Shown here piece after piece: positions 22,821 through 41,010 of a stretch of DNA of 64,000 nt. The stretch comes from Clostridia bacterium (lineage in GTDB: Bacteria > Bacillota > Clostridia > Saccharofermentanales > UBA5734): contig JAXGXR010000002.1 of assembly GCA_040772725.1 (NCBI GenBank), positions 949,223 to 1,013,222 of the forward strand, written 5' to 3'. Positions within the stretch are counted from its first letter, which is position 1, and each line of letters begins with the position of its first letter. The notes under the pieces are model-generated. The model was not told the origin of the DNA. It worked only from the letters and a program-made list of their open reading frames with translations, and did no database searches. The position numbers were made by a program, and so were the translations under genes.

Positions 22821-22945
22821 CAAAATGACTTATTTGCATTTTAACCCGTGTTGGTTGAAAATGGTCTGCAAACATAGATATCAGGCGTTTCACGATCTGA
22901 AAGCCGCTGTCCCCTGTCTTGTCTTCAAGGGTTGAAGGTGAAAGA

Positions 22946-25297
22946 ATGCTGGAAAGAATCGAAAGTCTCAGAAAATTTGTCATGGAAAGCCCGCGCCAGG
23001 TGTCTCTGGAGCGCGCACTGATCCACAAGGAATCCATGGAGGCCTCCGCCGGTCTGCCGGAGATCATCCGGCGCGCCATGTCATTTGGCCACATGGTGTC
23101 AAAATTCGAGATCGCGATCCATCCCGGTGAACTGATTGTCGGCGGGAGAACGGCCAATCCAAGGGCCGGAGTCGTGTCGGCCGGCCTGGGGGCCGACTGG
23201 CTGATGGAAGAACTGGACACGATCGCGACACGTGCGGTCGATCCGTTCCAGATCAGCCCGGCACAAAAACAGCTTTTCCGTGATGTGCTTTATCCGTATC
23301 ACAAAGGTCATGACATGCGGTCACGGATCGAGGCGGATCTGTCCGATGAGCAGAAAGCGGCCCGGGATGCCGGGATTTTTCGCCTCAACCAGACTGACAA
23401 GGGGCAGGGGCACATCCTGCCCGATTATTCGATTCTCCTGAAGCAGGGGATCGGACAGATGATCGAGGCCATGTCGGCCCTCCTGGGAGACCATCCGGAC
23501 AACACATTCTACAAGGCGACCCTGATCTGCTATCGAGGATTCCAGCACCTGATCGACCGATATGCCCGGCTGGCAGCCGATCAGGCTGATCATGAACCGG
23601 ATCCGGCGCGAAAGGCAGAGCTGAGGACCATCGCCGTCAACCTGAAATCCATCCGGGAAGCGCCGCCGGCAGATTTTCATCAGGCCTTGCAGCTTTTCTG
23701 GCTGACTTGTGTCGCGCTTCAACTCGAGTCCAATGCCAGTTCAATCTCGATCGGCCGTTTTGACCAGTTCATGCTACCCTATTTCCAGAAGGATATCGAA
23801 GAGGACCGGCTGAGTTTCGAACAGGCGCATCTGCTGCTGTCCTGCCTCTGGATCAAGATGAACGAGGTCATCATGATCCGCAGTGAGGACAGCGCCCGCT
23901 ATTTCGGCGGCTTTCCGACCGGATACAACATGGTTCTGGGCGGGATCACCAGCGACGGGTGGGACGGGACCAACGCGCTCAGCTATCTTTGCCTGGAGAT
24001 CACGAATGATCTTCGCCTGCCTCAGCCAAACCTGTCGGTCCGGGTCCACGCGAGCACCCCGACTTCGTTCTTGAAAAAGTCGTCCGAACTGGTGGCACAG
24101 GGATTTGGCATGCCCCAGATTTTCAACGATGATACGATCATCGAGACGCTGGTCAAGGAAGGAGTCAATCGGGAGGACGCCAAAGATTACGCGATTGTCG
24201 GCTGTGTCCAGCTGTCCATACCCGGCAAGATGTATGGCATGCCCGATGTCGCCCTTTTCAACCTGTTGAAATGCCTGGAGCTGGTGATTCACAGGGGGCT
24301 GGATCCGATCACCGGATCCACGATGCCGGTCGAGCTGGTGGATGGCCATGAGAGTCGATTTGAAAACTTCGAACAATCCGTGATGGAAACGGTGCGGCAC
24401 TATGTCCGTCAGGCCTGCCTCGGTGCGAATGTCGTTGACCGGGCACACCAGGACCTGGCCCAGGTGCCGCTGTTGTCGACCCTGATGACGGGATGCGCTG
24501 AAAGCGGCCGGGACATGACAGCAGGCGGGACCCGCTACAACTTCACCGGCCTTCAGCAGACCGGCATCGCCAATCTGGCCGATGCCATGCTCGTGATCCG
24601 CTCCGTGGTGTTTGAACAGCGGCGGATGACACTCGCTCAGTTGAGCCGTATCCTGCTGGACAACTACGCCGGGCATGAATCGATCCGACAGTCATTTATC
24701 GAAGACTACCCCAAGTACGGCAACAACATTGATGCGGTCGACACATTGGCGAACCGTTATCTGAAAAAATTCTGCGAGTTTGTATCGGCCAACACCAATC
24801 CGAGGGGTGGTCGGTTCTCGCCCGGCAGCTACACGGTGTCGGCCCACATCCCGATGGGGAAGAAGGTGGGGGCGACCCCGGATGGCCGCATGACCGGCAC
24901 AAAACTGGCGGATGGGGGACTGGCGCCCAGTGCCGGCCGGGATCTGCTGGGTCCGGTTTCGCTACTCAAGACGGTCAGTCGTCTGGACAGCGAGCTCTTG
25001 TCAAACGGCAGTCTGCTCAACATGCGGTTCAGCCGCGCCTCGTTTGTCGAGGCGGACAGTTTCGACCGATTCTTCCGGCTGATCAAGCTGTTCATCAAAC
25101 TCAAGCTCCTGCATATCCAGTTCAGTGTGGTGGATGAATCGTACCTGCGGGACGCCCAGACGCATCCAGAAAAGTATCCTGAACTCATGGTCAGGGTCGC
25201 CGGGTACACGGCCTATTTCAAGGACCTGGGCCGGGAGGTCCAGGATGACATCATCGACCGTTGCGCGAACAATATGGAGTTGAATGCGGATGAGTGA
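22946..25297 (+). CDS. glycyl radical enzyme, PflD/YbiW-like with a variant Cys loop (GRE3)
   Basis: 783 aa. RVAGYTAYF (Gly codon 25202-25204), and motifs LNQTDKGQGH, LESNASSISIGRFDQ, ARYFGGFPTGY and YTVSAHIPMG. The Cys loop reads IVGCVQLSIPGK, with Gln where the family normally has Glu. Confidence 0.9.
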   Translation: MLERIESLRKFVMESPRQVSLERALIHKESMEASAGLPEIIRRAMSFGHMVSKFEIAIHPGELIVGGRTANPRAGVVSAGLGADWLMEELDTIATRAVDPFQISPAQKQLFRDVLYPYHKGHDMRSRIEADLSDEQKAARDAGIFRLNQTDKGQGHILPDYSILLKQGIGQMIEAMSALLGDHPDNTFYKATLICYRGFQHLIDRYARLAADQADHEPDPARKAELRTIAVNLKSIREAPPADFHQALQLFWLTCVALQLESNASSISIGRFDQFMLPYFQKDIEEDRLSFEQAHLLLSCLWIKMNEVIMIRSEDSARYFGGFPTGYNMVLGGITSDGWDGTNALSYLCLEITNDLRLPQPNLSVRVHASTPTSFLKKSSELVAQGFGMPQIFNDDTIIETLVKEGVNREDAKDYAIVGCVQLSIPGKMYGMPDVALFNLLKCLELVIHRGLDPITGSTMPVELVDGHESRFENFEQSVMETVRHYVRQACLGANVVDRAHQDLAQVPLLSTLMTGCAESGRDMTAGGTRYNFTGLQQTGIANLADAMLVIRSVVFEQRRMTLAQLSRILLDNYAGHESIRQSFIEDYPKYGNNIDAVDTLANRYLKKFCEFVSANTNPRGGRFSPGSYTVSAHIPMGKKVGATPDGRMTGTKLADGGLAPSAGRDLLGPVSLLKTVSRLDSELLSNGSLLNMRFSRASFVEADSFDRFFRLIKLFIKLKLLHIQFSVVDESYLRDAQTHPEKYPELMVRVAGYTAYFKDLGREVQDDIIDRCANNMELNADE

Positions 25298-26234
25298 GTT
25301 GACGCCCGAACAAAGGAACACCTATCTGGCGACACGAGGCATCGTGTTCAATATCCAGCGCTTCAGCATTCACGATGGCCCGGGCATCCGGACAATCGTG
25401 TTCATCAAGGGTTGCCCCCTGCGCTGCCAGTGGTGTTCCAACCCCGAATCACAGGATCCGAAGCCTGTCCTCATGTTCTCACAGAAAAAATGCATCAGCT
25501 GTGGCCTGTGTGAAAAAGCCTGCCCGCTGGACGCGATCTCTTTTGTCGACAGTCCTTATCCGAAAATTGATCGCAGCATTTGCGACAACTGCGGCAAATG
25601 CGCCGAAGTCTGCTGCACGGAAGCGCTCTATATGGAAGGCAAAAGCATGTCGGTCGAGGAGGCCATGACAGAGGTCATGAAGGACAAACCCTTCTATGAC
25701 AATTCGGGCGGCGGACTGACCCTTTCCGGTGGCGAAACCCTTGCCCAGCCAAATTTCGCTCACGCGCTCCTGGCGATCGCCAAAGACCGGGGCCTTCATA
25801 CGGCTGCGGAAACGACCGGCTTTGCCCAGCCGGAGGTCCTGAAAAAAATCGTATCCAAATTGGACTTGGTCCTTTATGACTTCAAGCATGTCGATCCGGT
25901 CCGACACCTCGAAAAGACCGGGGTCGACAATACACAGATTCTTGAAAACCTGAAAATGCTGTGCGAGATGAAAGTCCCTCTGGTCGTGCGCATTCCGATC
26001 ATCCCGGGATTCAATGACGCGCTTTCAGATGCCGCTGAATTCGGTCGCCTGCTCAGTGAACTGAAAGTTGAAGAAGTCAATCTGCTTCCGTTCCACCAGA
26101 TGGGAGAGCACAAATACGAACTGCTTGGCAAACCCTATGCTTACAAGGGTGTCAAGAGCCTGCGCGAAGAGAGCCTTGTCGAGTACCGCCAGATCATGGC
26201 CGATTTTGATCTCGACGTCAAAATTGGTGGCTGA
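25284..26234 (+). CDS. glycyl-radical enzyme activating protein (radical SAM)
   Basis: 316 aa. CPLRCQWC plus CISCGLCEKACP and CDNCGKCAEVC motifs. Overlaps the GRE3 end. Confidence 0.9.
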   Translation: MRMSELTPEQRNTYLATRGIVFNIQRFSIHDGPGIRTIVFIKGCPLRCQWCSNPESQDPKPVLMFSQKKCISCGLCEKACPLDAISFVDSPYPKIDRSICDNCGKCAEVCCTEALYMEGKSMSVEEAMTEVMKDKPFYDNSGGGLTLSGGETLAQPNFAHALLAIAKDRGLHTAAETTGFAQPEVLKKIVSKLDLVLYDFKHVDPVRHLEKTGVDNTQILENLKMLCEMKVPLVVRIPIIPGFNDALSDAAEFGRLLSELKVEEVNLLPFHQMGEHKYELLGKPYAYKGVKSLREESLVEYRQIMADFDLDVKIGG

Positions 26235-27237: not shown

Positions 27238-28392
27238 ATGATCCCATTTCAAAAAGCTTATCGACTTGATCAGGCCGGCCAATTGATCGGGCAGGTCCTG
27301 GATTCCGGGCGGACTGAGGGAGATGGCATCATGTCCGAGCGGTGCCGGACCTGGCTATCATCGAGACTGGGCTCGCCTGATGTCCTGATGATGACCTCGT
27401 GCACCCATGCGCTGGAAGCGGCGGTCCGTTTGATCGGGATCAGGCCGCAGGACGAAGTCATCGTCCCATCATTTTGTTTTCCTTCCGCTGCGAACGCTGT
27501 CCTGCTCGCGGGTGGCACCGTGGTCTATGGAGAGGTGGAACCCGATCATCTGACGCTCGATCCCGACCGGCTTGCCATCCATATCAGCGATCGCACGCGG
27601 GCGGTGATCGTGATGCACTATGGCGGCGCCAGCTGCGATATGTCGAGGATTATGGCTCTCACAGAGCCAAGGGGCATTTTCATCATCGAAGATTGCGCCC
27701 AGAGTTTCCTGACGCGCTATCGTGGCCGATTGACAGGAACAATCGGGCATTTCGGCTGCTTCAGCTTTCACGGAACCAAGGATATCGTGGCCGGAGAAGG
27801 CGGTGCGCTCATGGTCAACGACGCCCGATTTGTGGTGGATGCCCGCCGATTCCGACAAAAAGGCACCAATCGCGATGATTTTTCATCCGGCAAGGTCAAT
27901 CGGTACGAGTGGGTTTCGCCCGGCTCCAGTTACGCGCCAGGCGAACTCCAGATGGCCTTGCTCGCATCGCAGCTGGAATTGAGCGACGAGATCCTTCAGC
28001 AGCGCCGTCATCTTTTCAAGCGTTACCACGATCATTTTTCAAATCAAACACGCGCTTCTCTCTACCATCAGGTCCTGGACAGTTTCAGCAGTCCCCAGCC
28101 GGATGTGGAGGAAAACGGGCACCTGTTCTTTCTACTCTTCCGACAATCGACCATCGCGGACGACCTGGTTTTGCATCTAAAAAACAACGGCATCGATGCG
28201 CGCACGCACTTTGTCCCGTTGCATGAAAGCCGGTACGGCCAATCTTTCGTCCGACCGGAGAATCATTTCACGGTGGAGCACGACATCGGCCGCCGTCTTG
28301 TCCGGCTGCCTTTGTTCCCCTCAATGACCGAATCCGAGCAGGATCAGGTGATGTCGACCATCGATCGATACTTCATGGGATTCCAGCCGTGA
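27238..28392 (+). CDS. DegT/DnrJ/EryC1-family sugar aminotransferase (WecE-like)
   Basis: 384 aa. PLP-Lys region FHGTKDIVAGEGGAL and KGTNRDDFSSGKVNRYEWVSPGSSY resemble dTDP-4-amino-4,6-dideoxygalactose transaminase. Confidence 0.85.
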   Translation: MIPFQKAYRLDQAGQLIGQVLDSGRTEGDGIMSERCRTWLSSRLGSPDVLMMTSCTHALEAAVRLIGIRPQDEVIVPSFCFPSAANAVLLAGGTVVYGEVEPDHLTLDPDRLAIHISDRTRAVIVMHYGGASCDMSRIMALTEPRGIFIIEDCAQSFLTRYRGRLTGTIGHFGCFSFHGTKDIVAGEGGALMVNDARFVVDARRFRQKGTNRDDFSSGKVNRYEWVSPGSSYAPGELQMALLASQLELSDEILQQRRHLFKRYHDHFSNQTRASLYHQVLDSFSSPQPDVEENGHLFFLLFRQSTIADDLVLHLKNNGIDARTHFVPLHESRYGQSFVRPENHFTVEHDIGRRLVRLPLFPSMTESEQDQVMSTIDRYFMGFQP

Positions 28393-29204
28393 AATCTGAA
28401 CTCAAACAGAAAGCTTCATCCAGCGAAAACGAATTTGATGCTGCAGCCGGACTATTGCTGTCGGTTGTCATACCGACTTACGGTCGAGGATCGGTGCTCG
28501 ACAAACATGTGGCACACATTCGGGATGTCCTGTCAGGCGATTCAGTTTACGGTCGTTCATTCGAGCTGATTCTGGTCGACGATCACAGCCCGGATGACAC
28601 CGCGATGGTGATCCGCTCACTTTGTCGCCGCTGGTCGGATGTCAAAGGGATCCTGCTGGCAGAAAATGTTGGACAGCAGAACGCCACCCTGGCCGGCTTG
28701 CGTCGGGCGTCAGGCCATTCCGTTGTCACAATGGACGACGACCTGAAAGATGATCCAAAAGACATCCGGCTCCTGCTGGATCTGCTTGCGGAAGACTACG
28801 ATGTCGTCTACGGGGTGCCGGCCGACATGCGGTCTGCCCGCTTGCACCGCCGATTCGGCACAGCCTTGAAGGAATCGATCATCGACTGGTCCTGTCGCAA
28901 ACCAGAAGGCATCCAGTTGACCGGGTTTCGCGCCATGAACCGACAGACCGCAGACCGGGTGGCCCGGGAAACCCGACAGCATGTCTATGTGTCCGCCACC
29001 ATCCTGCAGGAGCCGGTCCGTGTGGGTCAGGTGCTGGTCCGTGAAGGGCGCGGGGCTTCGCTCGCGTCCGGATACTCCATGACGAAACTGGCCGGGCTGA
29101 TTTTCAGATTGACTGTCCAATATGGCAGATGCCCGGTTTTCAAGCCTTTCAGAAAAGCGGGCAGACAATACGAAATCCGGGAGGTCATTGGATGCGACTC
29201 ATGA
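28389..29204 (+). CDS. family-2 glycosyltransferase, polyprenyl-phosphate sugar transferase type (ArnC/GtrB-like)
   Basis: VVIPTYGR ... LVDDHSPDDT ... MDDDLKDDP (DXD) motifs. 4-nt overlap with the upstream gene. Confidence 0.8.
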   Translation: MKSELKQKASSSENEFDAAAGLLLSVVIPTYGRGSVLDKHVAHIRDVLSGDSVYGRSFELILVDDHSPDDTAMVIRSLCRRWSDVKGILLAENVGQQNATLAGLRRASGHSVVTMDDDLKDDPKDIRLLLDLLAEDYDVVYGVPADMRSARLHRRFGTALKESIIDWSCRKPEGIQLTGFRAMNRQTADRVARETRQHVYVSATILQEPVRVGQVLVREGRGASLASGYSMTKLAGLIFRLTVQYGRCPVFKPFRKAGRQYEIREVIGCDS

Positions 29205-30448
29205 TGCTGGGTGCCGCTCTGGCCCAGTTGCCGGGGATCAAGGCCGCCAAGGACATGAATGTCACCGTCATCACCTGTGACAATCAGCCTGAATCGGTCG
29301 GGCATGCGTTCGCGGATCATGTGGCCTACGCCAGCACATTCGATCCGGATGGTGTTTATCGTGCGGCTCAAATGTATGCGATCGATGGAATCATGACCAT
29401 GGGTTCTGACCAACCGGTCCTGACAGCCGCCCTGGTCGCCCGGAAAATGGGCCTGCCGTCCGCGCTTGATGTGCCAACTGCCCGCTCGGTCACCGACAAG
29501 CGGGTGATGAAGCGACGATTCACCCGGCTGGGCATTCCGACGGTGCCCTACCTGATCTATCGGCAAAACGAAGCGGAGTTGCGCCGCTTTACGTCCTGGC
29601 CGGTTGTCGTCAAGCCGGTCGACTCACAAGGCCAGCGGGGTGTCTTTCTGCTGGATTCGCCGGAAGCGGTCCTCGCACGCGTCAATGATGTGCTTGCTTT
29701 CAGCCGGGTCGATGAGATCCTGGTCGAATCATACTATCCGAGCGATGAGGTCACGGTCAGTGGCTGGGTCCGGGATGGCCAGGCGACGGTGCTGGCGATT
29801 ACAGATCGTGTCACCTTTTCCGAACGGGAACGGATCGGGATCTGTCTGGCCCATGATCTGCCTTCAAAGCATCTGGCCAGGCATGGCGAAGACCTGATCG
29901 CCCTCACACATGATATCGTTTCCGGGTTTGGCATCCGGAACGGACCGGTCTATTTCCAATTCCTGATCGGGGCGGACGGGATCAAGGTCAACGAGATCGC
30001 CTGCCGGATCGGCGGGGCATTCGAGTCCCAATTCCTTCCACAGGTGACGGGTTTTGACCTGACGAAAGTCCAGGTGCAATCCGTACTCGGCATGGCAACG
30101 GGCGTAAACAACTGGGATGCGCTTGGCCGGTTCGATGTCCGGTCCGACCGGCACTTCCTGTCCGTGCAATTGTTTTTTGCTGAGCCGTGCACCATCGGCA
30201 GTCTGACCCCGCTTGAGGAAATCCTGGCTTTGGATGGCGTACTGGACGCTGGATATCATAAAAGCTGCGGACAAACCATCCGGGACATCAGCGACGCGAC
30301 TGCCCGAGTCGGGTACTGCATTGTGACCGGAGATTCGCAAAAACAAGTGGATAGAAGGGTGGACCGGTTATATCAGGTGCTGGCGGTCCGCGACACAGAC
30401 GGCTACAACCGACTGATCCATCAACCACGACGGGAGGTGTCAGCATGA
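29192..30448 (+). CDS. ATP-grasp domain ligase
   Basis: Start at ATG 29192 behind GGGAGG. ATP-grasp-like motifs WPVVVKPVDSQGQRGVF, ILVESYY and VNEIACRIGG. Confidence 0.75.
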   Translation: MRLMMLGAALAQLPGIKAAKDMNVTVITCDNQPESVGHAFADHVAYASTFDPDGVYRAAQMYAIDGIMTMGSDQPVLTAALVARKMGLPSALDVPTARSVTDKRVMKRRFTRLGIPTVPYLIYRQNEAELRRFTSWPVVVKPVDSQGQRGVFLLDSPEAVLARVNDVLAFSRVDEILVESYYPSDEVTVSGWVRDGQATVLAITDRVTFSERERIGICLAHDLPSKHLARHGEDLIALTHDIVSGFGIRNGPVYFQFLIGADGIKVNEIACRIGGAFESQFLPQVTGFDLTKVQVQSVLGMATGVNNWDALGRFDVRSDRHFLSVQLFFAEPCTIGSLTPLEEILALDGVLDAGYHKSCGQTIRDISDATARVGYCIVTGDSQKQVDRRVDRLYQVLAVRDTDGYNRLIHQPRREVSA

Positions 30449-31431
30449 ACGGCAGGCGGTCTTTCATCCCACCGGGAATCCGCATGGCCGTCCTGGCTCT
30501 GCTCGTTTTCGTGACCGCGTTGATTGGTGGATGTGGTCAGCCAGAAGGGGTCGACATCATTGTCGCCGAACAATATGGCCTGGCCTACGCGCCGATTCAG
30601 ATCATGAAGGAGAAGGGCTTTCTGGAGCAGGCGCTTGCCAAGAGGACTGGCGTCAATCAACCGGTGTCCGTCAACTGGGTCAAACTGGCGAACACGGCCG
30701 CGATCCGGGAAGCCATGCTGGCCGATTCACTGGATGTGGCATTCGTCGGGATCCCGCCTTTCCTGATTGGCTTGGACCAGGGCATGCCCTGGAAGATGAT
30801 CACCGGGCTGTCGGAGTGCCCGCTGGACCTGATGGTTCACGAATCGTCCGTGCCTGACTTTCAATCGCTGGTCGGTGCGGGGAAGATCGCACTGCCGCAG
30901 CCGGGCAGCATCCAGCACATCCTGCTGGCGATGGCCGCTGAGAAGCAATTGGGCGATGCCTCGATTTTTGACCGCCAGCTGGTCTCGATGAAGCACCCGG
31001 ACGGGATGCAAGCCCTGCTTTCCGGTCAGGACATTGTGGCACACTTCACCGCGCCGCCGTATAATTTCATGGAATCGGAAACAGTTGGATTTCGATCGGT
31101 TCTGACTGGTGAAGCGGCAATGGGGGAACCATTCAGTTTCATTGTCGGCATCGCTCAGCCCGCTCTTTACGAGGACAAGATCCGAATTGAGGCTTTCATG
31201 GAAGCACTAGACCAATCATTCGCTTTCATCGACGAAAACCGGGACGAAACAGTAGCCTTGCTGGCTGCCAGCTTTGAGCTCAGTCCGGAACAGACCGAGG
31301 AATTTTTGTTCGAACGCGGTATCAGATTCGGACCGGAGATTCGCGGCACGTCCGCATTCAGTACGTTCATGACCCGGACAGGTTACATAGGAAGGCAGTA
31401 CGATGTTGAAGAACTGGTATGGCAAGGATAA
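30445..31431 (+). CDS. ABC substrate-binding lipoprotein, NMT1/THI5 (NitT/TauT) type
   Basis: Signal peptide plus lipobox (LIGGC). SsuA/NMT1-like fold pattern. ATGA-type overlap with the ATP-grasp gene. Confidence 0.7.
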   Translation: MNGRRSFIPPGIRMAVLALLVFVTALIGGCGQPEGVDIIVAEQYGLAYAPIQIMKEKGFLEQALAKRTGVNQPVSVNWVKLANTAAIREAMLADSLDVAFVGIPPFLIGLDQGMPWKMITGLSECPLDLMVHESSVPDFQSLVGAGKIALPQPGSIQHILLAMAAEKQLGDASIFDRQLVSMKHPDGMQALLSGQDIVAHFTAPPYNFMESETVGFRSVLTGEAAMGEPFSFIVGIAQPALYEDKIRIEAFMEALDQSFAFIDENRDETVALLAASFELSPEQTEEFLFERGIRFGPEIRGTSAFSTFMTRTGYIGRQYDVEELVWQG

Positions 31432-32170
31432 CGCGGCAAATCGCAGCGTTGGCCGCCAACTGATCTGGCTGGCCATCATCATCGCAATATGGGAGCTGGC
31501 AGCCAGGCTCAAGCTGGTCAACCCGCTGATCCTGCCGAGCGCGTCAGCGGTCCTTGTCCGGATGGTCACCGGCCTATGGGAAGGCACACTTGCCCTGCAG
31601 CTGCTTCAATCGATCGGCCTTGTCCTGGCCGGACTGGTGGTCGGCAGCCTGATTGGATTCATGTTAGCGTGCCTCGATTATTTCCTGCCATTCACCCGGC
31701 CGCTGATCACTCTGCTCAATGCCATGTTCCATCCGTTGCCGGGTGTCGCGATTCTGCCGTTGGTCCTGGCCATAGCCGGCCTTGGCCTGAAGTCTGTTTT
31801 CATTGTGATCCTGCATGCGGTTGTCTGGTCTACCTATTTGAACCTGTCGACCGGATTTCGCTCCGTCGATCCGGACTACATCGACGCGGCGCTCAATGTC
31901 GGCGTGAACAGTTGGCAGCTGGTCTGGCACATCCTGCTGCCGGTCAGCGGTCATCATGTTGTGACCGGGCTGAAAATCGGCTGGTCACGAGGATGGCGTG
32001 CCCTGATCAGCGCCGAGATGGTGTTCAGCGCGATCGGCGCGCTGGGAGGCATCGGCTGGTACTTGTTTGAAAGACGAGCCTTCATGGACACAACAGGGTT
32101 ATATGCGGGTATCTGCCTGGTCATTCTGACCGGCGTCCTCATGGAAAACATCCTGTTCAATCGCTCCTAG
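31403..32170 (+). CDS. ABC transporter permease, NitT/TauT family
   Basis: 255 aa, 6 TM, with the binding-protein-dependent transport EAA-like region. Overlaps the SBP gene by 29 nt. No ATPase gene follows. Confidence 0.8.
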   Translation: MLKNWYGKDNAANRSVGRQLIWLAIIIAIWELAARLKLVNPLILPSASAVLVRMVTGLWEGTLALQLLQSIGLVLAGLVVGSLIGFMLACLDYFLPFTRPLITLLNAMFHPLPGVAILPLVLAIAGLGLKSVFIVILHAVVWSTYLNLSTGFRSVDPDYIDAALNVGVNSWQLVWHILLPVSGHHVVTGLKIGWSRGWRALISAEMVFSAIGALGGIGWYLFERRAFMDTTGLYAGICLVILTGVLMENILFNRS

Positions 32171-32180
32171 GTCTTGAAAA

Positions 32181-32215
32181 AAAGAAAGCCCGGGGCTGAC
32201 CCGGGCCTTCTTTAT
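32181..32215. terminator. bidirectional terminator hairpin
   Basis: GCCCGGG-gctga-CCCGGGC stem flanked by AAAAAAAGAAA and CTTCTTTAT. Lies between convergent genes. Confidence 0.65.
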
Positions 32216-32245
32216 GTTCCATCAGACAATACCGGATGTGATCTG

Positions 32246-34843
32246 TCAGCCGGTTACCAGCTCGAAGCCGGCGTTGACCCAGCCCTGCGGCGCGTTGGAC
32301 GGCATGCCGGCGCCACCGTTGAGGGAGACGGCGTCGTAGCCGAGCAGGCGCAGGGAGGCGACGGCCTGGCCGGCGGTCTGGCCGGTGTAGCAGTAGACGA
32401 CGATCTTCTTGTCCTTCGGCAGCGCGCTCAGGTCATTGAGCATGGCCTTGCCGAACGGGATGTTGATCGCGCCGGGGATGTGGCCCTTCTGGTAGTCCTC
32501 GGCCTTGCGCACCGACAGGATGACAATGTCTTCCTTGGCGTCGATGGCGGCCTTGAGGTCGGCCTCGGAGATCTTGTAGTTCTTGTACTTGTCGGTGATC
32601 TGGACCATCTTGCCGTAGTAGTCGGCGACGGCCTTGGCGACGTTGGCGTTGACCGGATAGGTCTTGTCCGGCAGGGTGTTGGCTGTCGTCTCGGTGACAT
32701 CGGCGACACCCTCGACCTTGGAGATGCCGAAGTTCCAGCCCAGGTTGACGCTGCGGGCCTTGATGCCGGCGGCGTTCAAGGTGATGACGGCCTGGCCGGC
32801 GGTCTGGCCGGTGTAGCAGTAGACGAAGACGTCCTTGTCCTGCGGGATTTTGGCCAGGTTGTCACTGATGGCCGTGCCCCACGGGATGTTGACGGCGCCC
32901 TTGACATGGCCCTTCTCATAATCGGCGGCGCCGCGGATGTCAAGGATGACCAGGCTTTCGCCGGCCTTGACCTTGTCGACGAATTCCTTCTCCGCGATCT
33001 TGTAGATATGGTCCGGCATGTTGGCGACCAGCGCCTTCACGACCGACTCGACCGAAGCCTCGGCTGTGCCGGTTACCAGCTCGAAGCCGGCATTGACCCA
33101 GCCCTGCGGCGCGTTGGACGGCATGCCGGCGCCACCGTTGAGGGAGACGGCGTCGTAGCCGAGCAGGCGCAGGGAGGCGACGGCCTGGCCGGCGGTCTGG
33201 CCGGTGTAGCAGTAGACGACGATCTTCTTGTCCTTCGGCAGCGCGCTCAGGTCATTGAGCATGGCCTTGCCGAACGGGATGTTGATCGCGCCGGGGATGT
33301 GGCCCTTCTGGTAGTCCTCGGCCTTGCGCACCGACAGGATGACAATGTCTTCCTTGGCGTCGATGGCGGCCTTGAGGTCGGCCTCGGAGATCTTGTAGTT
33401 CTTGTACTTGTCGGTGATCTGGACCATCTTGCCGTAGTAGTCGGCGACGGCCTTGGCGACGTTGGCGTTGACCGGATAGGTCTTGTCCGGCAGGGTGTTG
33501 GCTGTCGTCTCGGTGACATCGGCGACACCCTCGACCTTGGAGATGCCGAAGTTCCAGCCCAGGTTGACGCTGCGGGCCTTGATGCCGGCGGCGTTCAAGG
33601 TGATGACGGCCTGGCCGGCGGTCTGGCCGGTGTAGCAGTAGACGAAGACGTCCTTGTCCTGCGGGATTTTGGCCAGGTTGTCACTGATGGCCGTGCCCCA
33701 CGGGATGTTGACGGCGCCCTTGACATGGCCCTTCTCATAATCGGCGGCGCCGCGGATGTCAAGGATGACCAGGCTTTCGCCGGCCTTGACCTTGTCGACG
33801 AATTCCTTCTCCGCGATCTTGTAGATATGGTCCGGCATGTTGGCGACCAGCGCCTTCACGACCGACTCGACCGAAGCCTCGGCTGTGCCGGTGACCAGCT
33901 CGAAGCCGGCGTTGACCCAGCCCTGCGGCGCGTTGGACGGCATGCCGGCGCCACCGTTGAGGGAGACGGCGTCGTAGCCGAGCAGGCGCAGGGAGGCGAC
34001 GGCCTGGCCGGCGGTCTGGCCGGTGTAGCAGTAGACGACGATCTTCTTGTCCTTCGGCAGCGTGCTCAGGTCATTGAGCATGGCCTTGCCGAACGGGATG
34101 TTGATCGCGCCGGGGATGTGGCCCTTCTGGTAGTCCTCGGCCTTGCGCACCGACAGGATGACAATGTCTTCCTTGGCGTCGATGGCGGCCTTGAGGTCGG
34201 CCTCGGAGATCTTGTAGTTCTTGTACTTGTCGGTGATCTGGACCATCTTGCCGTAGTAGTCGGCGACGGCCTTGGCGACGTTGGCGTTGACCGGATAGGT
34301 CTTGTCCGGCAGGGTGTTGGCTGTCGTCTCGGTGACATCGGCGACACCCTCGACCTTGGAGATGCCGAAGTTCCAGCCCAGGTTGACGCTGCGGGCCTTG
34401 ATGCCGGCGGCGTTCAGGGTGATGACGGCCTGGCCGGCGGTCTGGCCGGTGTAGCAGTAGACGAAGACGTCCTTGTCCTGCGGGATTTTGGCCAGGTTGT
34501 CACTGATGGCCGTGCCCCACGGGATGTTGACGGCGCCCTTGACATGGCCCTTCTCGTAATCGGCGGCGCCGCGGATGTCAAGGATGACCAGGCTTTCGCC
34601 GGCCTTGACCTTGTCGACGAATTCCTTCTCCGCGATCTTGTAGATATGGTCCGGCATGTTGGCGACCAGCGCCTTCACGACCGACTCGACCGAAGCCTCG
34701 GCCGGTTTCGTTGTCGTGGCGGCGGTTGTCGCCGCCGTCGTGTTGGTGGCTGTCATGGTCGGTACACTGGTGGCGGTCTGGCCGCATGCGGCGACGGTCA
34801 GTGCAAGAATAAGCAGGAGCGCTACAAGGGTCAGTTTCTTCAT
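32246..34843 (-). CDS. secreted lipoprotein with six rhodanese domains (3 x tandem double-rhodanese module)
   Basis: Start at ATG 34843 behind AAGGAG. Signal peptide and lipobox (LTVAAC), then a Thr-rich linker. Three 273-aa units follow, each with two GlpE/PspE-like domains carrying the active-site loop VYCYTGQTAGQAV. Confidence 0.85.
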   Translation of the reverse strand: MKKLTLVALLLILALTVAACGQTATSVPTMTATNTTAATTAATTTKPAEASVESVVKALVANMPDHIYKIAEKEFVDKVKAGESLVILDIRGAADYEKGHVKGAVNIPWGTAISDNLAKIPQDKDVFVYCYTGQTAGQAVITLNAAGIKARSVNLGWNFGISKVEGVADVTETTANTLPDKTYPVNANVAKAVADYYGKMVQITDKYKNYKISEADLKAAIDAKEDIVILSVRKAEDYQKGHIPGAINIPFGKAMLNDLSTLPKDKKIVVYCYTGQTAGQAVASLRLLGYDAVSLNGGAGMPSNAPQGWVNAGFELVTGTAEASVESVVKALVANMPDHIYKIAEKEFVDKVKAGESLVILDIRGAADYEKGHVKGAVNIPWGTAISDNLAKIPQDKDVFVYCYTGQTAGQAVITLNAAGIKARSVNLGWNFGISKVEGVADVTETTANTLPDKTYPVNANVAKAVADYYGKMVQITDKYKNYKISEADLKAAIDAKEDIVILSVRKAEDYQKGHIPGAINIPFGKAMLNDLSALPKDKKIVVYCYTGQTAGQAVASLRLLGYDAVSLNGGAGMPSNAPQGWVNAGFELVTGTAEASVESVVKALVANMPDHIYKIAEKEFVDKVKAGESLVILDIRGAADYEKGHVKGAVNIPWGTAISDNLAKIPQDKDVFVYCYTGQTAGQAVITLNAAGIKARSVNLGWNFGISKVEGVADVTETTANTLPDKTYPVNANVAKAVADYYGKMVQITDKYKNYKISEADLKAAIDAKEDIVILSVRKAEDYQKGHIPGAINIPFGKAMLNDLSALPKDKKIVVYCYTGQTAGQAVASLRLLGYDAVSLNGGAGMPSNAPQGWVNAGFELVTG
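32250..34701. repeat. tandem triplication, period 819 bp
   Basis: Units start at 32250, 33069 and 33888. I count 1 difference between units 1 and 2 and 4-5 differences to unit 3, of which only one is non-synonymous (Ala/Thr). Confidence 0.95.
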
Positions 34844-34938
34844 AAACGTTTTCTCCTTCAAATTGGGGATCATATTGGGGATCATATGGATGATTTGACC
34901 GGGATGGCAATCAAGTGGATTATGCTGGTGGGAATCGG

Positions 34939-35871
34939 TTATGACCCATCACCCTGTGTTGGCGCGATGGTTGTCGGAGCGGGTCCCGTCGGCTGGGCCG
35001 GCTGGGTCGGCGTGACAGGGGTCTGGTCGATAGAGGACCATTCGACCCATGCGCCATCGTAAACCTGTACGTTCTTGAATCCGGCTTCTTTGAGCAGCAT
35101 GTAGGTTTGTGTCGCACGGAAAGAAGTCTTGCAGTAGACAATGATGTTGTCATTCAATTTGACACCCTTGTCCATGTAATCCAGCAGGGTGTCATGACCG
35201 GACTTGAACCGTCCGTTATCATAAAGATTGTCGGTGTGCGGATAAAGGATGGCTTTCGGAATGGCGCCTTCCGCGAATTCGGCTTTGGTGCGCACATCGA
35301 TGATGACACCCTTTTCGCGTCCTTCAGTTATAGCCTTGACTTCGTCGATTGTCGCGTAGATGCCTTGATCAAGCGGTTTGGCTGTATATGTCGTGGGCTT
35401 GGGCTCGGTCGCCAGTCCGGTGATGGGCAGACCGGCCAGAACGATGCCGGCTTCGCCGTGATTGACCAGCCAGGCGTTCTCGTGGCCGTACGCCTTTAGC
35501 ACCCACCAGACCCTGCTGGCGTTGACGCCGGCATTGTGGTCGTAGATATACACTTTCGACTGGTTGCTGATGCCCATCCGGCCAAGTTCTTCCTCAACCT
35601 GTGCCTGCGATGCGATCAGGTTGGGGACGGGCTCCTGGACGGACAGCATGGACGGGGGCAGGTTGATCGCGTTTTCCAGGTGTCCAGCGCCATAATTTTC
35701 CGACGGCCGGGCATCGATGACGACGGCATCCGGATCCTTCATCAGTTCCGCCAGGTCAGTTGCCTCAACAAAGTGGATACTGTCGGTGAATTCAGTCTTG
35801 TTGCAAGCCGCAACTGTCAACAGTAAAGCAATCGCCAGCAGACAGAATACAGCCTGTTTCATGAGACGCAT
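34939..35871 (-). CDS. lipoprotein thiosulfate/3-mercaptopyruvate-type sulfurtransferase (two-domain rhodanese)
   Basis: Start at ATG 35871 behind AGGAGG. Lipobox LTVAAC. An inactive N-terminal rhodanese domain plus a C-terminal domain with the loop VYCKTSFRAT, followed by a Pro/Thr-rich C-terminal tail. Confidence 0.85.
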   Translation of the reverse strand: MRLMKQAVFCLLAIALLLTVAACNKTEFTDSIHFVEATDLAELMKDPDAVVIDARPSENYGAGHLENAINLPPSMLSVQEPVPNLIASQAQVEEELGRMGISNQSKVYIYDHNAGVNASRVWWVLKAYGHENAWLVNHGEAGIVLAGLPITGLATEPKPTTYTAKPLDQGIYATIDEVKAITEGREKGVIIDVRTKAEFAEGAIPKAILYPHTDNLYDNGRFKSGHDTLLDYMDKGVKLNDNIIVYCKTSFRATQTYMLLKEAGFKNVQVYDGAWVEWSSIDQTPVTPTQPAQPTGPAPTTIAPTQGDGS

Positions 35872-36089
35872 ATTGTTTGTTCCTCCTGAAAATAGCATAT
35901 GATGGTAACACTGTTCCCATCATATCACAAATCGTTTAATTGTCACCTGTCTCAGTGTTCAATGAGGGGGCAAAATTGCCTAAATAACGTAAACGATTGC
36001 ATCTGTTTTGCGGTCAAGAGAGAAAAGCATGTGTCGTCCTGGTTGCCACGTATGATAAAATCAGGGAAACACAAAAGGCAGGACAGGGT

Positions 36090-37781
36090 GTGAAGGGAAC
36101 AGGAAGCAGGGAACGGCCGCATCGGGATCGATCCGGCAGGATCATCCATTCACAGGCCATCCTCTATGGCCTTGTCTGGACATCGATCCAGGTGATGACC
36201 CTGGACCGCTTCCCGTTCGTCCATTCCGATGAAGCATGGCTGTCCGGGCTGTCGCTGACCATGCTCCGCGCGAGATCCTTCCTGGTGACCGAGCCCTTTT
36301 TCGATGTGTTCCCCCGACAGGCTCACGCATTCAAAATCCTCTTTCATGCGCTTCAATCCGGTTTCATCCAGCTGTTCGGCTATCAGCTGAAGAGTATCAG
36401 GCTGATCAGCCTGATGGCCGCGATGGCCTGCCTCGTCATGTTGCATGTCCATGCCGATCGCCTGTTTTCAGACAAGAAGGCAGCCCTGGGCTTCACGATC
36501 CTGTTCAGTCTCCAGATCCAGTTCCTGTACGCTTCCCATCTGGCCCGCCAGGAAATCCTGCTTCTGCTGGTGCTCATTCTGGCCGGTTTTCTGTATGATC
36601 GATCCACAGCCGGACGATTCTGGGTCATGCCACTCATGATCGGTCTGTCCGCGATGCTGCACCCGAACGCATTCATCATCGCCATGATGATCGGGCTGGT
36701 TGTTCTCAAGGACGCCTGGCGAAAACGCATCCCACGTAACCGTTTGCTGTTGTACACCGGCATCCTGCTTTCATGCATGGTCGCGCTGACATCTGTCAGC
36801 CTGGCCATGACGCCGGATTTCCTGACCAATTATGCCCGATACGGGTCAACATTCGGCATGGATACGGGTCTGATCTCTCGCTGGCAAGGCTTCCTTGCCT
36901 ATTTCATCAAGCTATTTCAGCAGATCAGCGGCTCTTACTGGCTGCCGGACATCCGTTTCTGGCTGATACTAGGCGGAGTGGTCACGCTTGTCTCGATTGC
37001 AGCCCTGCTTTTGGCTGGTCGACGAATTGGAATGGAAACGAGAAACGGTCTCGAAAACGGCCTGTGTGGAATGGGGGGATTTTTGATGGCCACCTTCATC
37101 ATCGGCCGATACAATCCGACCGCCATCCTGTTTGCCTTCTACCCGATTCTACTGCTGACCGGACACCTGCTGAATGCCTTGTGGCAGTCCCGCTCACAAT
37201 GGCTCAGAGGGACGGCGATTGCTGCAGCCGGTGGGCTGATTGCCTTCAGCCTGGTGGGCAGTATCCAGACGATTCGACCGTTCACGATGAAGGTGACGGA
37301 TCCATACGAATTGTATCTGGCTGAAATTCGCGGCCATCTGCCTCAGGACGCCATCGTGCTCGGCAACCTGAGCGCGGGATTTGCCCTGATGGATGTTCCG
37401 TTCTATGACATCCGCAACCTGGACCATGTGGCAAACCTGAATGGCCAGGACAACAATGTTCCGTCAACCAGCATAAGTGACCCGGATAAGCAAATGACAA
37501 CAGCATCTGACATAGAGGCCTATCTGCAAAAAAACGAAATCAACACGGTCATCTGGTATGAGGAATATGACTACATCATCAGAAACCCCATGTGGCGGAT
37601 CCTCTATGAGGAGCAATCCGACAGCACAGCTCCGTCCGACATGCTGATGGCCCTCAAGCAGGTGGTCGAAGAAAGGGGCGACTTGCTCCATACGTTCGAA
37701 TCCAAGGTGTATGGGACCCGGATCGCCCGGTTTATGGACGACTATCCATGGCAGATCAGCTTGTATCGGATCCAGCCTTGA
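36090..37781 (+). CDS. GT-C fold membrane glycosyltransferase (ArnT/PMT-like, GT39/GT83-type)
   Basis: More than 10 TM segments and an acidic HSDEAW motif in the first extracytoplasmic loop, then a ~160-aa soluble C-terminal domain. Start is uncertain (GTG 36090 or ATG 35997). Confidence 0.55.
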   Translation: MKGTGSRERPHRDRSGRIIHSQAILYGLVWTSIQVMTLDRFPFVHSDEAWLSGLSLTMLRARSFLVTEPFFDVFPRQAHAFKILFHALQSGFIQLFGYQLKSIRLISLMAAMACLVMLHVHADRLFSDKKAALGFTILFSLQIQFLYASHLARQEILLLLVLILAGFLYDRSTAGRFWVMPLMIGLSAMLHPNAFIIAMMIGLVVLKDAWRKRIPRNRLLLYTGILLSCMVALTSVSLAMTPDFLTNYARYGSTFGMDTGLISRWQGFLAYFIKLFQQISGSYWLPDIRFWLILGGVVTLVSIAALLLAGRRIGMETRNGLENGLCGMGGFLMATFIIGRYNPTAILFAFYPILLLTGHLLNALWQSRSQWLRGTAIAAAGGLIAFSLVGSIQTIRPFTMKVTDPYELYLAEIRGHLPQDAIVLGNLSAGFALMDVPFYDIRNLDHVANLNGQDNNVPSTSISDPDKQMTTASDIEAYLQKNEINTVIWYEEYDYIIRNPMWRILYEEQSDSTAPSDMLMALKQVVEERGDLLHTFESKVYGTRIARFMDDYPWQISLYRIQP

Positions 37782-37884: not shown

Positions 37885-39609
37885 TTATTTGAAGTTGTAC
37901 TTGGTCACGATCTTGTCGCGACCGGTGACCTGGTCATTGTAGTATTCGTAATAGCAGATGCCCAGATACGATCCGGATATGTTCCTGACATTGCAATACC
38001 CAAGATTGTACAAAGCCTTGACGGCGTTGTAGCTTCTCTGGGAAGACCGGCAATGCATATAGACGGGAATGTCCTGGGGAATTTCGTCTACTCTTTGCCG
38101 AAGCTCGCTGAGCGGGATGTTGATCGCATTGATCAGGTGACCGGCTTCATATTCCCGCTTCTCACGGACATCGACGATGAAGGCATTGCTCTCGACCAGT
38201 TCTCTGACCTCGGACACCTTGACCTGTTCGAAATCGCCGTTCAGCAGATTCAGTCCCACCAGCGCGGCCAGGTTGACAACATCCTTGGCCGTCCCGAACG
38301 GCGGCGCGTAGCACAGTTCGAGCTCTTTCAAGTCTTCAAGGGTACCGCCCATGGTGATCATGGTTGCGATCACGTCGATCCGCTTGTCCACGTTGCCCTT
38401 GCCGATGGCCTGGGCACCCAGGATCGTGCCGGTCGGGACTTCATACACCAGCTTGAAATGCATTGGATTGCTGTCCGGCATCAGGCCGACCTTGTCGCTC
38501 GGGATGATGTAGACGAAATCATGATGAATGCCGGCTTTCTGGGCAGCTTTGACGGTCAGTCCGGTCGAGGCGGCGTTCATGCCGAAGACCTTGATGCAGG
38601 ATGAACCGATGACACCGGTGTAGCGATGGGGTTTGCCGTACATGTGGTCTGCCGCGGCCCGGGCTTGTCTCTGGGCCGGACCGGCCAGGGGCAGCCGAGT
38701 CCGCTGCTTGGTGATCTGATTGTAGGTCTCGATCGCGTCGCCGACGGCATAGATGTTCTTGTCATTCGTCAGATAATTGTGGTCGACCAGAATGCCGCCG
38801 GTTTCTCCCAGTTTCAGGCCGGCATCGACAGCCAGGGAAACTTCCGGCCTGACACCGATGGCCATGACGACCGCTTCAGCCGGTATGGTCTTGCCGGAAT
38901 TGAGTTCGATGGCTTCTTCCCCGACTTTTTTCAAGCCGTCACCCAGAATGAGGTTGACACCCTGGTCCATCATTTCCTTGTGGAGGATCTGTGCCATGTC
39001 GTAATCATAGGGCGCCATGATCTGGTCGAGGGCTTCGACCAGCGTGACATTGAACCCGGCTTCCTTCAGGTTTTCAGCAACTTCCACGCCGATGAAGCCA
39101 CCGCCGATCACGGCGATGTTGTTGACTTCGCACATCTCGACATTGGTCATTTTCGTACGGCTCTTGACGTACTTGTTCAGTTTGTCGATGTCCACGACAT
39201 TTCTGACGACAAAAACGTTGGGGCCGTCAATGCCTTCGATGCTCCTGGGGAGGATCGGGTTTGCACCCGGGGAAAGGAACAGTTTGTCATAGGTCTCTTT
39301 GTATTCTTTTCCGGTGTCGAGTTCCCTGACCGTGACTGTTTTCTTGGCCCGGTTGATTTTGACGACTTCTGACATGACCCGGGCCTGGATGTTGTACTGC
39401 TTCTTGAAAACGATCGGATCCATCAGAACAAGATCCTCGCTGTTTGGAACGATTCCACTCAGATGATAAGGCAAGGAGCAGTTTGAAAAACTGACATTGG
39501 GCCCTCTTTCGAACATGATGATCTCGGCGGTTTCATCGATGCGCCTCACCCTGGCTGCCACGGAAGCGCCGCCGGCGACACCTCCAACGATCAGAATCTT
39601 TTTCCCCAT
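37885..39609 (-). CDS. CoA-disulfide reductase / NAD(P)H persulfide reductase with a C-terminal rhodanese domain
   Basis: 574 aa. FAD motif VGGVAGGAS, redox Cys SFSNCSLPY, NAD motif VIGGGFIGVE, and a C-terminal rhodanese with the loop MHCRSSQRS. Confidence 0.9.
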   Translation of the reverse strand: MGKKILIVGGVAGGASVAARVRRIDETAEIIMFERGPNVSFSNCSLPYHLSGIVPNSEDLVLMDPIVFKKQYNIQARVMSEVVKINRAKKTVTVRELDTGKEYKETYDKLFLSPGANPILPRSIEGIDGPNVFVVRNVVDIDKLNKYVKSRTKMTNVEMCEVNNIAVIGGGFIGVEVAENLKEAGFNVTLVEALDQIMAPYDYDMAQILHKEMMDQGVNLILGDGLKKVGEEAIELNSGKTIPAEAVVMAIGVRPEVSLAVDAGLKLGETGGILVDHNYLTNDKNIYAVGDAIETYNQITKQRTRLPLAGPAQRQARAAADHMYGKPHRYTGVIGSSCIKVFGMNAASTGLTVKAAQKAGIHHDFVYIIPSDKVGLMPDSNPMHFKLVYEVPTGTILGAQAIGKGNVDKRIDVIATMITMGGTLEDLKELELCYAPPFGTAKDVVNLAALVGLNLLNGDFEQVKVSEVRELVESNAFIVDVREKREYEAGHLINAINIPLSELRQRVDEIPQDIPVYMHCRSSQRSYNAVKALYNLGYCNVRNISGSYLGICYYEYYNDQVTGRDKIVTKYNFK

Positions 39610-39738: not shown

Positions 39739-41010
39739 TCAGCGTTTGGCAAAAATGACTTTTGAGAGCGAATGGCCGATAACCCCGCCAACCACCATGA
39801 AAACCAGGAATACCCATCCGGAAAGCGAGAAATTGGCAATTGGCGTGAACAGGGCGCCGACATTGCAGCCATTGGCCAGTCGAGTGCCAAATCCCATCGT
39901 CAATCCGCCCAACACGAACGTCAGGGCTTCACGGGTGGTGATGTGGATTTCCTCCAGAAAGGTTTCCTTGAAGACGCCGGCTGTCAGCAGGAAAACAGCG
40001 GTCCCCAGCACAATGCCGACGTTCTGGACGGTAATCTGGTTCTGGAACAGCGGCTGTGTGAAACTGCCGGCACTCATGCCGGAGAAGGAAGCCAGCGAAT
40101 CCGCCGACACTCCAAACAGCATCAGGATCTTGCCAAACCAGATTCCATACGGGGTGGAAGCGCCCCAGCCGGCTCGGGTCACGCCCATCATCAATCCGTA
40201 GAAGATGACCAGCAGGACCGCGCCTTGCTGCAGGGTCCACGGCCTGACGAAGAGACGGTCGTATGTGCTGTTGCTCAGCGGTTTGAAGTCCTTGGCGTCC
40301 GGCTCGGCCAGAGCAGCCTGCTTTTTCTCCATGCCGACACCGGTGTATGTGTTGTTCAGCTTGCGGCGCTTTTCGTATAGCGTGGCCAGCCAGACGACCG
40401 CACCGCAAAGGATTGCGGTCATGAGCAGCGCGCCAATATAGCCGCCGGTGCCGTCCCCGCGGAACAGGTCGGGCAGGAAGATGCCATTGTGGTAGGTCGC
40501 CTTGTCCACATCCAGGAAGAACCAGGACCGCTTGACCCAAGCTGCTCCGTTTTGAAGCGGATAACCCAGGAAGACGCCCATCATGAAGAAAATCAGCGTG
40601 ATGAACGCTCGCGGCAGACCTGTCACCAGGTCTGTCATCACACCGGAGGCGCAGCAGGAAGCGAAGGACATGCCGAAACCGAAGAGCAGTCCGCCAAGAA
40701 TCAAGCCCAGATTGATCGGATTGATCCAGAGACTGTAGGTGGTCGCATCCTGTCGGAACAAGAACGCGGTCGTCAGGAGCGCCGCGATGAAGAACATGAA
40801 CATCATGGTTCGCATCAGTTTTGTCGATCCGGTTCTAACAGCCCGGTTGACGCTGCCGGCAAAGCCGGTGTAGGCCCTTGAAAGGGTGTAACCGATTCCG
40901 GTACCGACCAGAAGCCGGAAAAACAGGACATCTGACGCCAACAAAGTCTTGCCCAGGATCATGAGCAGAATAATGCCGATAAAACCAATCACTTTCTCCA
41001 CATTCTTCAT
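39739..41010 (-). CDS. YeeE/YedE family sulfur-compound (thiosulfate-type) transporter
   Basis: 423 aa, multi-TM. Conserved Cys motifs SFASCCASG and RLANGCNVG are typical of YeeE/YedE. Confidence 0.85.
   Translation of the reverse strand: MKNVEKVIGFIGIILLMILGKTLLASDVLFFRLLVGTGIGYTLSRAYTGFAGSVNRAVRTGSTKLMRTMMFMFFIAALLTTAFLFRQDATTYSLWINPINLGLILGGLLFGFGMSFASCCASGVMTDLVTGLPRAFITLIFFMMGVFLGYPLQNGAAWVKRSWFFLDVDKATYHNGIFLPDLFRGDGTGGYIGALLMTAILCGAVVWLATLYEKRRKLNNTYTGVGMEKKQAALAEPDAKDFKPLSNSTYDRLFVRPWTLQQGAVLLVIFYGLMMGVTRAGWGASTPYGIWFGKILMLFGVSADSLASFSGMSAGSFTQPLFQNQITVQNVGIVLGTAVFLLTAGVFKETFLEEIHITTREALTFVLGGLTMGFGTRLANGCNVGALFTPIANFSLSGWVFLVFMVVGGVIGHSLSKVIFAKR

Follow-up and report, generated by a model that had tools for sequence, protein, structure and literature searches.

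The gene considered here encodes a multi-rhodanese lipoprotein of 865 amino acids (aa) and lies on the minus strand of a stretch of 64,000 nucleotides (nt) from a Clostridia bacterium of the Saccharofermentanales (GenBank assembly GCA_040772725.1, contig JAXGXR010000002.1, positions 949,223 to 1,013,222), hereafter called the window, to which all coordinates refer. Its coding sequence is built of three head-to-tail units of 819 bp (32249–34702) that are 99.4–99.9% identical to each other in DNA, each unit coding for a pair of rhodanese domains. The best explanation of the data as a whole, to which we assign a probability of about 0.7, is that the array is real, that it reflects the concerted evolution of a catalytic module arrayed in tandem since ancient times, that its third copy is recent and that the protein has a role in sulfur capture. 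According to this proposal, the module would have been arrayed in tandem in the family for a long time, most commonly as two units, and homologous recombination between the units, in the form of gene conversion and unequal crossing-over, would overwrite units and alter their number. In the lineage of the window, the first-unit type would have overwritten the body of the second unit, homogenisation would have continued after the split from the closest sequenced relative, and the third unit would have been added last. This is fairly ordinary concerted evolution inside a gene and no new kind of mechanism.

Structure of the repeat array

A first reading of the window, made from its letters and open reading frames (ORFs), had described a near-perfect, in-frame array of 3 × 819 bp with a period of 273 codons, and both the identity at that period and an independent repeat search bear the description out. 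Compared with itself at a shift of 819 bp, the DNA is identical at a fraction of 0.97–1.0 across 32249–33883, versus about 0.25–0.3 in the flanks, with 6 mismatches in 1,635 comparisons (at 32273, 33074, 33092, 33244, 33598 and 33737), while the repeat search places the copies at 32249, 33068 and 33887, with spacings of 819 and 819; the similarity is far above chance level. The period-819 identity was calculated directly, since the period of the array is beyond the limit of 500 of Tandem Repeats Finder, which left the array unreported and whose longest period was 500.

Five sites vary among the three units, there are no indels, and every copy is in frame. Counted in plus-strand order, the first two units differ solely at 32273 (G) and 33092 (A), and the third differs from the first at 33893, 34063, 34417 and 34556; these are the one and the four further differences that the sequence-only reading had counted, and on the coding strand a single one of them alters an amino acid, as it had also stated. 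The mismatches at 34703–34706 mark the end of the repeat and are not real differences between units. One refinement is that, the gene being on the minus strand, what had been called unit 3 is the N-terminal unit of the protein. Four of the variable sites are synonymous (AAC/AAT, GTA/GTC, TTG/CTG and TAT/TAC), and the fifth is either GCG (Ala), as in LSALPKD, or ACG (Thr), as in LSTLPKD, the Thr being residue 261 of the protein and part of the N-terminal unit. Besides the derived Thr261, this unit retains the ancestral C at two of the synonymous sites; the synonymous change to AAT at 33092 is private to the middle unit.

The repeat proper consists of 816 nt followed by a 3-nt junction codon, ACA (Thr), which is missing both before the first copy and after the last one, where the very next codon is the stop, TGA. 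The junction is therefore not a fresh join of the ends that the array has at present.

Comparison with the closest relative

The closest relative is a metagenome scaffold from ENA (L001), syntenic with the window across at least 12 genes, whose flanking genes share 70–94% of protein and 72–84% of DNA identity with those of the window. In the L001 orthologue, too, the period is 819 bp; it has two units, with a DNA identity of about 100% between them and of 88% to the units of the window (72% at third codon positions). The junctions can be aligned codon for codon (ELVTG-T-AEAS in the window, ELVTD-S-AEAS in L001). Since period and junction are common to the two genomes, yet units of one genome group together, the split between the window and L001 would have been preceded by an array of two or more units, and each lineage would have been homogenised later. 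Had the units diverged freely since that split, any two of them would be expected to differ at about a hundred sites, against the one to five that are seen. The earlier proposal of a very recent amplification or ongoing gene conversion is thus supported, and it is sharpened by the period, the junction and the 88% unit identity of L001.

The direction of the exchange can be approached through eight positions that are diagnostic for first and second units in the eight nearest two-unit relatives. The units of the window and of L001 have the first-unit state at six of these, and the second-unit state is confined to their extreme C-terminus, which suggests that the body of the first unit overwrote the second. 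When L001 is taken as outgroup, the middle and C-terminal units of the window share at least two derived synonymous alleles, so that the last event would have joined these two units, either as an expansion from two to three or as a conversion between them; it is on account of these alleles that the third unit is placed last, and in the pattern of substitutions it appears as a recent gain and the most recent addition to the array. The four substitutions within the array that can be polarised are all GC to AT.

Unit number and unit phylogeny in the family

Among the best 120 homologues, which come from Fusibacter, Vallitalea, Oceanirhabdus, Helicovermis and many metagenome-assembled genomes (MAGs) of Clostridia, 113 have two units and seven have three. 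Single-unit forms were found by a pattern-based scan in 12 of 25 species-representative genome loci, including Spirochaetes. The identity between units of the same protein is mostly 55–80%, with a tail that reaches 100% (80–90%, n = 17; 90–95%, n = 5; 95–99%, n = 2; at least 99%, n = 2). Between close relatives the units correspond by position, the nearest neighbour in another protein being the unit at the same place in 215 of 226 cases; in a tree of 247 units, nevertheless, the clades of first and second units are sister to each other repeatedly, with no single deep split, which reads as the signature of repeated homogenisation or re-duplication.

Partial homogenisation is visible in the DNA of several members. 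The units of L028 (on a 3.75-Mb contig) and L029 are about 100% identical save for the first ~80 nt, while those of L027 differ at third positions along their first half and match at about 100% along the second, a mosaic that looks like the trace of a conversion tract; protein-level run tests agree with mosaicism or near identity in distant members. Judging from the unit sequences, three-unit proteins would have arisen at least three times, namely in the window (database protein P0001), in P0003, whose second unit was recently duplicated, and in the group P0004–P0008. The three units of L002 are only 77–80% identical in DNA, so that a three-unit protein can persist without homogenisation, and such diverged proteins (L002, P0004–P0008) indicate that the three-unit architecture is viable.

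The near identity of the units could also be a matter of youth alone, if the array were a purely recent, de novo triplication of a single-unit ancestor with no exchange between units. Single-unit forms are indeed common in the family, the closest species includes a single-unit assembly (L013), and the unit resembles a deletion product, with the body of a first unit and the C-terminal tail of a second, which could have passed through a single-unit intermediate. We nevertheless hold this to be unlikely, because the period and the position of the junction codon shared with L001 are not expected from independent illegitimate duplications, because the lack of ACA at the array ends speaks against a new join, and because homogenisation and mosaic tracts recur throughout the family.

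Protein architecture

The start of the gene is likely the ATG of MKKL at 34843, with a ribosome-binding site (AAGGAGA) just upstream; the product is 100% identical to P0001, which also begins at MKKL, and the ORF list gives a further in-frame ATG upstream, at 34885. The GC content at the three codon positions is 0.58, 0.40 and 0.91. On the opposite strand, a 962-aa ORF (32174–35062, plus) was rejected as an antisense shadow ORF, rich in Gly, Asp, Leu and Val and devoid of domain logic, since it is the minus frame that has the third-position GC content (GC3) of 0.91 and the six rhodanese domains. This ORF, which covers the entire array, results from the very high GC3 on the coding strand and could mislead gene-calling programs.

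The protein consists of signal, linker and three units, with no separate distal functional domain. Its signal peptide, MKKLTLVALLLILALTVAAC, carries VAAC at residues 17–20, which by eye agrees with the lipobox pattern [LVI][ASTVI][GAS]C, and AC is the majority residue pair at this place in the family consensus; some members (P0003, P0014) have an ordinary signal peptide instead. The protein is thus predicted to be an extracytoplasmic lipoprotein, held by an N-terminal lipid anchor.

The Pfam model Rhodanese (PF00581) matches six separate stretches, with 338.4 bits against a cutoff of 22.2. Each unit comprises two rhodanese domains, offset by 426 nt and with a DNA identity of about 60%, and the CYTGQT loop is intact in both (YCYTGQTAGQ), giving six active-site cysteines. 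These cysteines are kept in 247 of 247 units for one domain and in 246 of 247 for the other among the 120 homologues, and a six-residue catalytic loop that starts at the cysteine, CxxGx[RT], is present in both domains of every unit. A loop of six residues is that of sulfurtransferases, the loop of Cdc25 and arsenate reductase being longer (Bordo and Bork, 2002, as cited in PMC5525254).

The middle unit was modelled as a two-domain fold with high scores (predicted local distance difference test, pLDDT, 97.1; predicted template modelling score, pTM, 0.93). Superposed on solved two-domain rhodaneses, the model gives template modelling (TM) scores of 0.34–0.41 and a root-mean-square deviation of about 10 Å. 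The single domains would therefore be canonical, with a mutual arrangement unlike that of classical rhodanese, and the model suggests a domain arrangement not yet seen among solved structures, in which both active sites are kept. In the classical thiosulfate and 3-mercaptopyruvate sulfurtransferases (rhodanese, RhdA, SseA) an inactive N-terminal domain is packed on the active C-terminal one and covers it, whereas the units described here have the Cys loop in both domains. Of the solved structures, the one closest in sequence (E = 3.6e-20) is the four-domain thiosulfate sulfurtransferase of Pseudomonas aeruginosa (PDB 1YT8), which likewise has several rhodanese domains in one chain and a six-residue Cys loop; the match is nevertheless weak, at about 20% identity, and the domains of 1YT8 have diverged from one another, as seen in their differing alignments.

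Family profiles have to be read with care in such a protein. The whole protein scores 207.7 with the NCBIfam model NF045521 (rhoda_near_glyco; cutoff 145) and 194.8 with that of PspE (NF007627; cutoff 102), and it also exceeds the cutoffs of GlpE and rhodanese_LYCAU. The single domains obtain 32–45 bits with NF045521, 33–40 bits with PspE and merely 26–45 bits over the set of these models, and not one of them reaches the curated cutoff of NF045521 or NF007627. By these scores the protein would not be a true member of rhoda_near_glyco or PspE, the cutoffs being passed by the sum of six domains; that summed domain scores can lift multi-domain proteins past family cutoffs they do not deserve is a general hazard of annotation. 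The description of NF045521, a rhodanese-homology protein adjoining glycosyltransferase genes, fits the neighbourhood found here, and the extracytoplasmic PspE is among the best NCBIfam matches of the single domains, although the protein is not a PspE equivalog.

Proposed function and known comparators

PspE of Escherichia coli and the polysulfide-sulfur transferase Sud of Wolinella succinogenes are single-domain rhodaneses located outside the cytoplasmic membrane, where they bind or transfer sulfane sulfur. From domain content and predicted location we infer for the protein of the window a capture and hand-over of extracellular sulfane sulfur that would be comparable in principle to that of the periplasmic PspE and Sud, from which it differs in being lipid-anchored, in having six domains and in its gene neighbourhood. 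It would present six persulfide-forming cysteines outside the membrane, which may take up sulfane sulfur from thiosulfate or polysulfide or shuttle it, and how many active sites each anchored molecule has would depend on its unit number. Candidate partners are the neighbouring two-domain rhodanese lipoprotein and, in the genome of the window, also a YeeE-type transporter and an enzyme that combines a CoA-disulfide reductase with a rhodanese domain. The genus Fusibacter, whose species reported so far reduce thiosulfate or sulfur (PMC9751042), carries homologues of the protein, and a sulfur context for it is likewise deduced from the genes.

A second group of comparators is known for its length variation rather than for its chemistry. 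The Periscope proteins (SasG, Rib/alpha C, Sgo_0707) are surface-anchored proteins whose length varies through recombination (Whelan et al., 2021, PMC8201768). They share with the protein of the window the surface anchoring, the long tandem repeats of folded domains that are near-identical in DNA, possibly the variation of repeat number between close relatives, and the proposed mechanism, intragenic homologous recombination. They differ in that their repeats are stalk domains, whereas the unit repeated here is a catalytic module of two enzyme domains; in that the stalk projects a separate functional domain, a distal ligand-binding one, which is lacking here; in that their anchor is a C-terminal wall anchor and not an N-terminal lipid; and in that their repeat number varies at strain level, whereas the differences between one and two units discussed below come largely from short-read assemblies of other species. 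The protein is thus Periscope-like at the DNA level and not a Periscope member.

Were the repeats mainly a spacer of variable length, as in Periscope proteins, selection would act on the reach through the wall and not on the number of catalytic sites. Tandem folded domains with near-identical DNA and variable number in a surface-anchored protein are the hallmark of that group (PMC8201768), but the spacer explanation seems to us quite improbable: the protein ends with its last unit and has no distal domain to project, the catalytic loop is invariant across 247 units, which points to each copy being selected for catalysis or for the binding of sulfur, and one to three units are seen instead of the wide ranges typical of Periscope proteins.

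A more ambitious proposal would make the gain, loss and homogenisation of modules by recombination a dosage switch, an enzymatic counterpart of the Periscope system in which the number of sulfane-sulfur sites is variable between strains and selected, in a family of extracytoplasmic two-domain rhodanese lipoproteins of anaerobic Clostridia and Spirochaetes encoded nearly always beside a GT-C-type membrane glycosyltransferase. We regard it as tentative and, on balance, doubtful. The RecA dependence and the tunable unit number that had been suggested for the array, the latter taken as a selected function, are presumptions.

Copy-number variation and assembly reliability

Variation in copy number had been predicted from the repeats of the window, and one, two or three units indeed occur among relatives. 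In two lineages, one and two units are found in genomes that are 97–99.6% identical; these are largely short-read assemblies, a caveat that the sequence-only reading had itself raised. The first case is L013, a species-representative MAG labelled as uncultured Oscillospiraceae, which has one unit and is 99.2–99.6% identical in DNA to the two-unit L001. The second is a cluster of Vallitaleaceae proteins at 90% identity in which two-unit forms of 607 aa occur together with one-unit forms of 332 aa; the two-unit forms are on contigs of 3.7–3.8 Mb and on some SPAdes contigs, the one-unit forms on at least nine contigs, and the flanks are 97–99% identical. Within these Vallitaleaceae, unit number tracks the sub-lineage (L046 and L047 as against L028, L048 and L049), with flanks 97–98.8% identical for the one-unit forms and 99.2% for the two-unit forms. 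Such tracking hints at a real polymorphism, although a collapse of perfectly identical units may also account for it. All single-unit forms in these comparisons come from short-read-style assemblies, and a pattern of one versus two units is predicted alike by recombinational gain and loss and by assembly collapse, so that unit number in genes of this kind is not to be trusted in short-read assemblies and MAGs. In the metagenomes of the Joint Genome Institute (JGI), a 35-nt exact pattern common to the window and L001 had no match, and a protein-pattern scan retrieved only relatives at 70% identity or less.

Several points weigh against the history and the function proposed here. The count of three units in the window has the assembly as its only source, its species occurs once in the databases searched, so that comparisons of unit number come from other species, and the relatives that differ in unit number are mostly short-read assemblies, in which tandem units of identical sequence become collapsed or looped. 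The middle unit is not the chimera (B/A) that a simple unequal crossover between the older units would produce, unless the exchange fell within the last ~10 nt. The test for overwriting rests on eight conservative positions, and the unit tree is a neighbour-joining tree without bootstrap support. As regards sulfur, the YeeE and CoA-disulfide-reductase genes are adjacent in a minority of loci (YeeE in 7 of 49), and literature searches on the lipoprotein family and on multi-rhodanese tandem proteins found nothing specific.

The array of the window is probably not an assembly artefact, and that it truly has one or two units, expanded or mis-phased, with consensus errors or strain heterogeneity posing as unit differences, we consider very improbable, for although identical 819-bp units exceed the length of short reads and near-identical genomes of two related lineages were assembled with one and with two units, the array is in frame, with five copy-specific substitutions and without indels, four of the five are synonymous as real evolution under constraint predicts, it sits on a 1.36-Mb contig while the usual error of assemblers with such repeats is collapse and not expansion, and three-unit homologues with diverged units exist, one of them in a 3.4-Mb single-chromosome MAG assembly.

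Gene neighbourhood and base composition

The features of the gene and of its surroundings are collected in Table 1.

Table 1. Features of the three-unit rhodanese gene and of its neighbourhood (positions in the window).
Feature	Position	Strand	Basis or remark
865-aa multi-rhodanese lipoprotein gene; the three-unit array is its coding sequence	32246–34843	-	ORF list, translation, Pfam, database match
Signal peptide with lipobox, MKKLTLVALLLILALTVAAC; Cys20 predicted lipidated residue	34784–34843	-	Read from sequence
Thr/Ala-rich linker, GQTATSVPTMTATNTTAATTAATTTKP, outside the repeat	34703–34783	-	Translation; repeat boundary 34702/34703
N-terminal unit, residues 48–320 (273 aa), Cys130 and Cys272	33884–34702	-	Unit 3 of the sequence-only reading
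Middle unit, residues 321–593 (273 aa), Cys403 and Cys545	33065–33883	-	
C-terminal unit, residues 594–865 (272 aa), Cys676 and Cys818	32249–33064	-	Stop codon 32246–32248 directly after
GC-rich hairpin, probably a bidirectional terminator, in the gap that separates the rhodanese gene from the convergent permease gene	32188–32206	.	
Promoter-like site TTGCCA-18-TATGAT, 5' of the MKKL start	34881–34910	-	Consensus match only
12-bp tandem repeat, ATGATCCCCAAT × 2.5, overlapping the -10-like box	34858–34887	-	
319-aa lipoprotein of the classical two-domain rhodanese type, upstream	34939–35898	-	Pfam, sequence
594-aa polytopic membrane protein, weakly PMT_2/GT-C-like, divergently transcribed	35997–37781	+	
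CoA-disulfide-reductase-like flavoprotein with C-terminal rhodanese domain	37885–39609	-	Pfam, NCBIfam
YeeE/YedE-type sulfur transporter	39739–41010	-	Pfam, NCBIfam
Convergent cluster: WecE-like aminotransferase, ArnC/PgfS-like GT2, ATP-grasp ligase, SsuA-like binding protein, TauC-like permease	27238–32170	+	

A hairpin similar to the one downstream of the gene is found 3' of the orthologue in L013, and the 12-bp repeat upstream is not conserved in L001. The 319-aa rhodanese lipoprotein, also present in relatives, has an N-terminal domain without Cys, a C-terminal loop CKTSFR and a Pro/Thr-rich tail. The 594-aa membrane protein scores 25.6 bits with PF13231, just below the cutoff of 26.1, and its orthologues match PMT_2 or PMT; with a homologue in the flank of 42 of the 49 loci it is the most conserved neighbour. 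The order of the CoA-disulfide-reductase-like and YeeE genes is kept in L001, and the convergent cluster adjoins the rhodanese gene in L001, L027, L028, L029 and many other loci. As a side observation, the neighbourhood at 27238–37781, as it occurs in L001, L027, L028, L029 and most of L002–L049, looks like a pathway of lipid-linked amino-sugar transfer; one may speculate that the Thr/Pro-rich segments of both rhodanese lipoproteins are targets of glycosylation. No Rfam family was found in the window between 20000 and 50000.

The GC3 of the rhodanese gene (0.91–0.93) stands against a median of about 0.66 in the neighbouring genes. GC-biased gene conversion was considered as its source and is unsupported, because the bias is reversed in AT-rich relatives, where the third positions of the gene hold more A and T than those of the genes around it. 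A similar GC3 excess is seen in relatives that have a single unit and a GC-rich genome. A strong expression-linked codon bias is suggested as a better fit than GC-biased conversion.

Two further observations concern more distant genes. At 22919–26234 (plus strand) there are a glycyl-radical enzyme of the PFL2-3 family, above the subfamily cutoff, and its radical-SAM activase. The enzyme is below the cutoffs of the models for sulfopropanediol dehydratase, choline lyase and hydroxyproline dehydratase, and is encoded near two sulfonate-type ABC transporters and sulfur genes; a part in organosulfonate metabolism is a possibility. At 44087–44812 (plus strand) a secreted DUF2202 (ferritin-like) protein has a long low-complexity tail rich in Gly, Asn and Arg, and its gene adjoins that of an SBF-family transporter (44933–45931).

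Significance

The gene offers a clear bacterial case of concerted evolution that acts on a whole enzyme module within one gene, set in a family throughout which homogenisation has recurred and forms with one, two and three units are on record. The rhodanese lipoproteins to which it belongs are a widespread, uncharacterised family with a conserved neighbourhood of glycosylation type, and they may matter for the handling of thiosulfate and sulfur in anaerobic fermenters.

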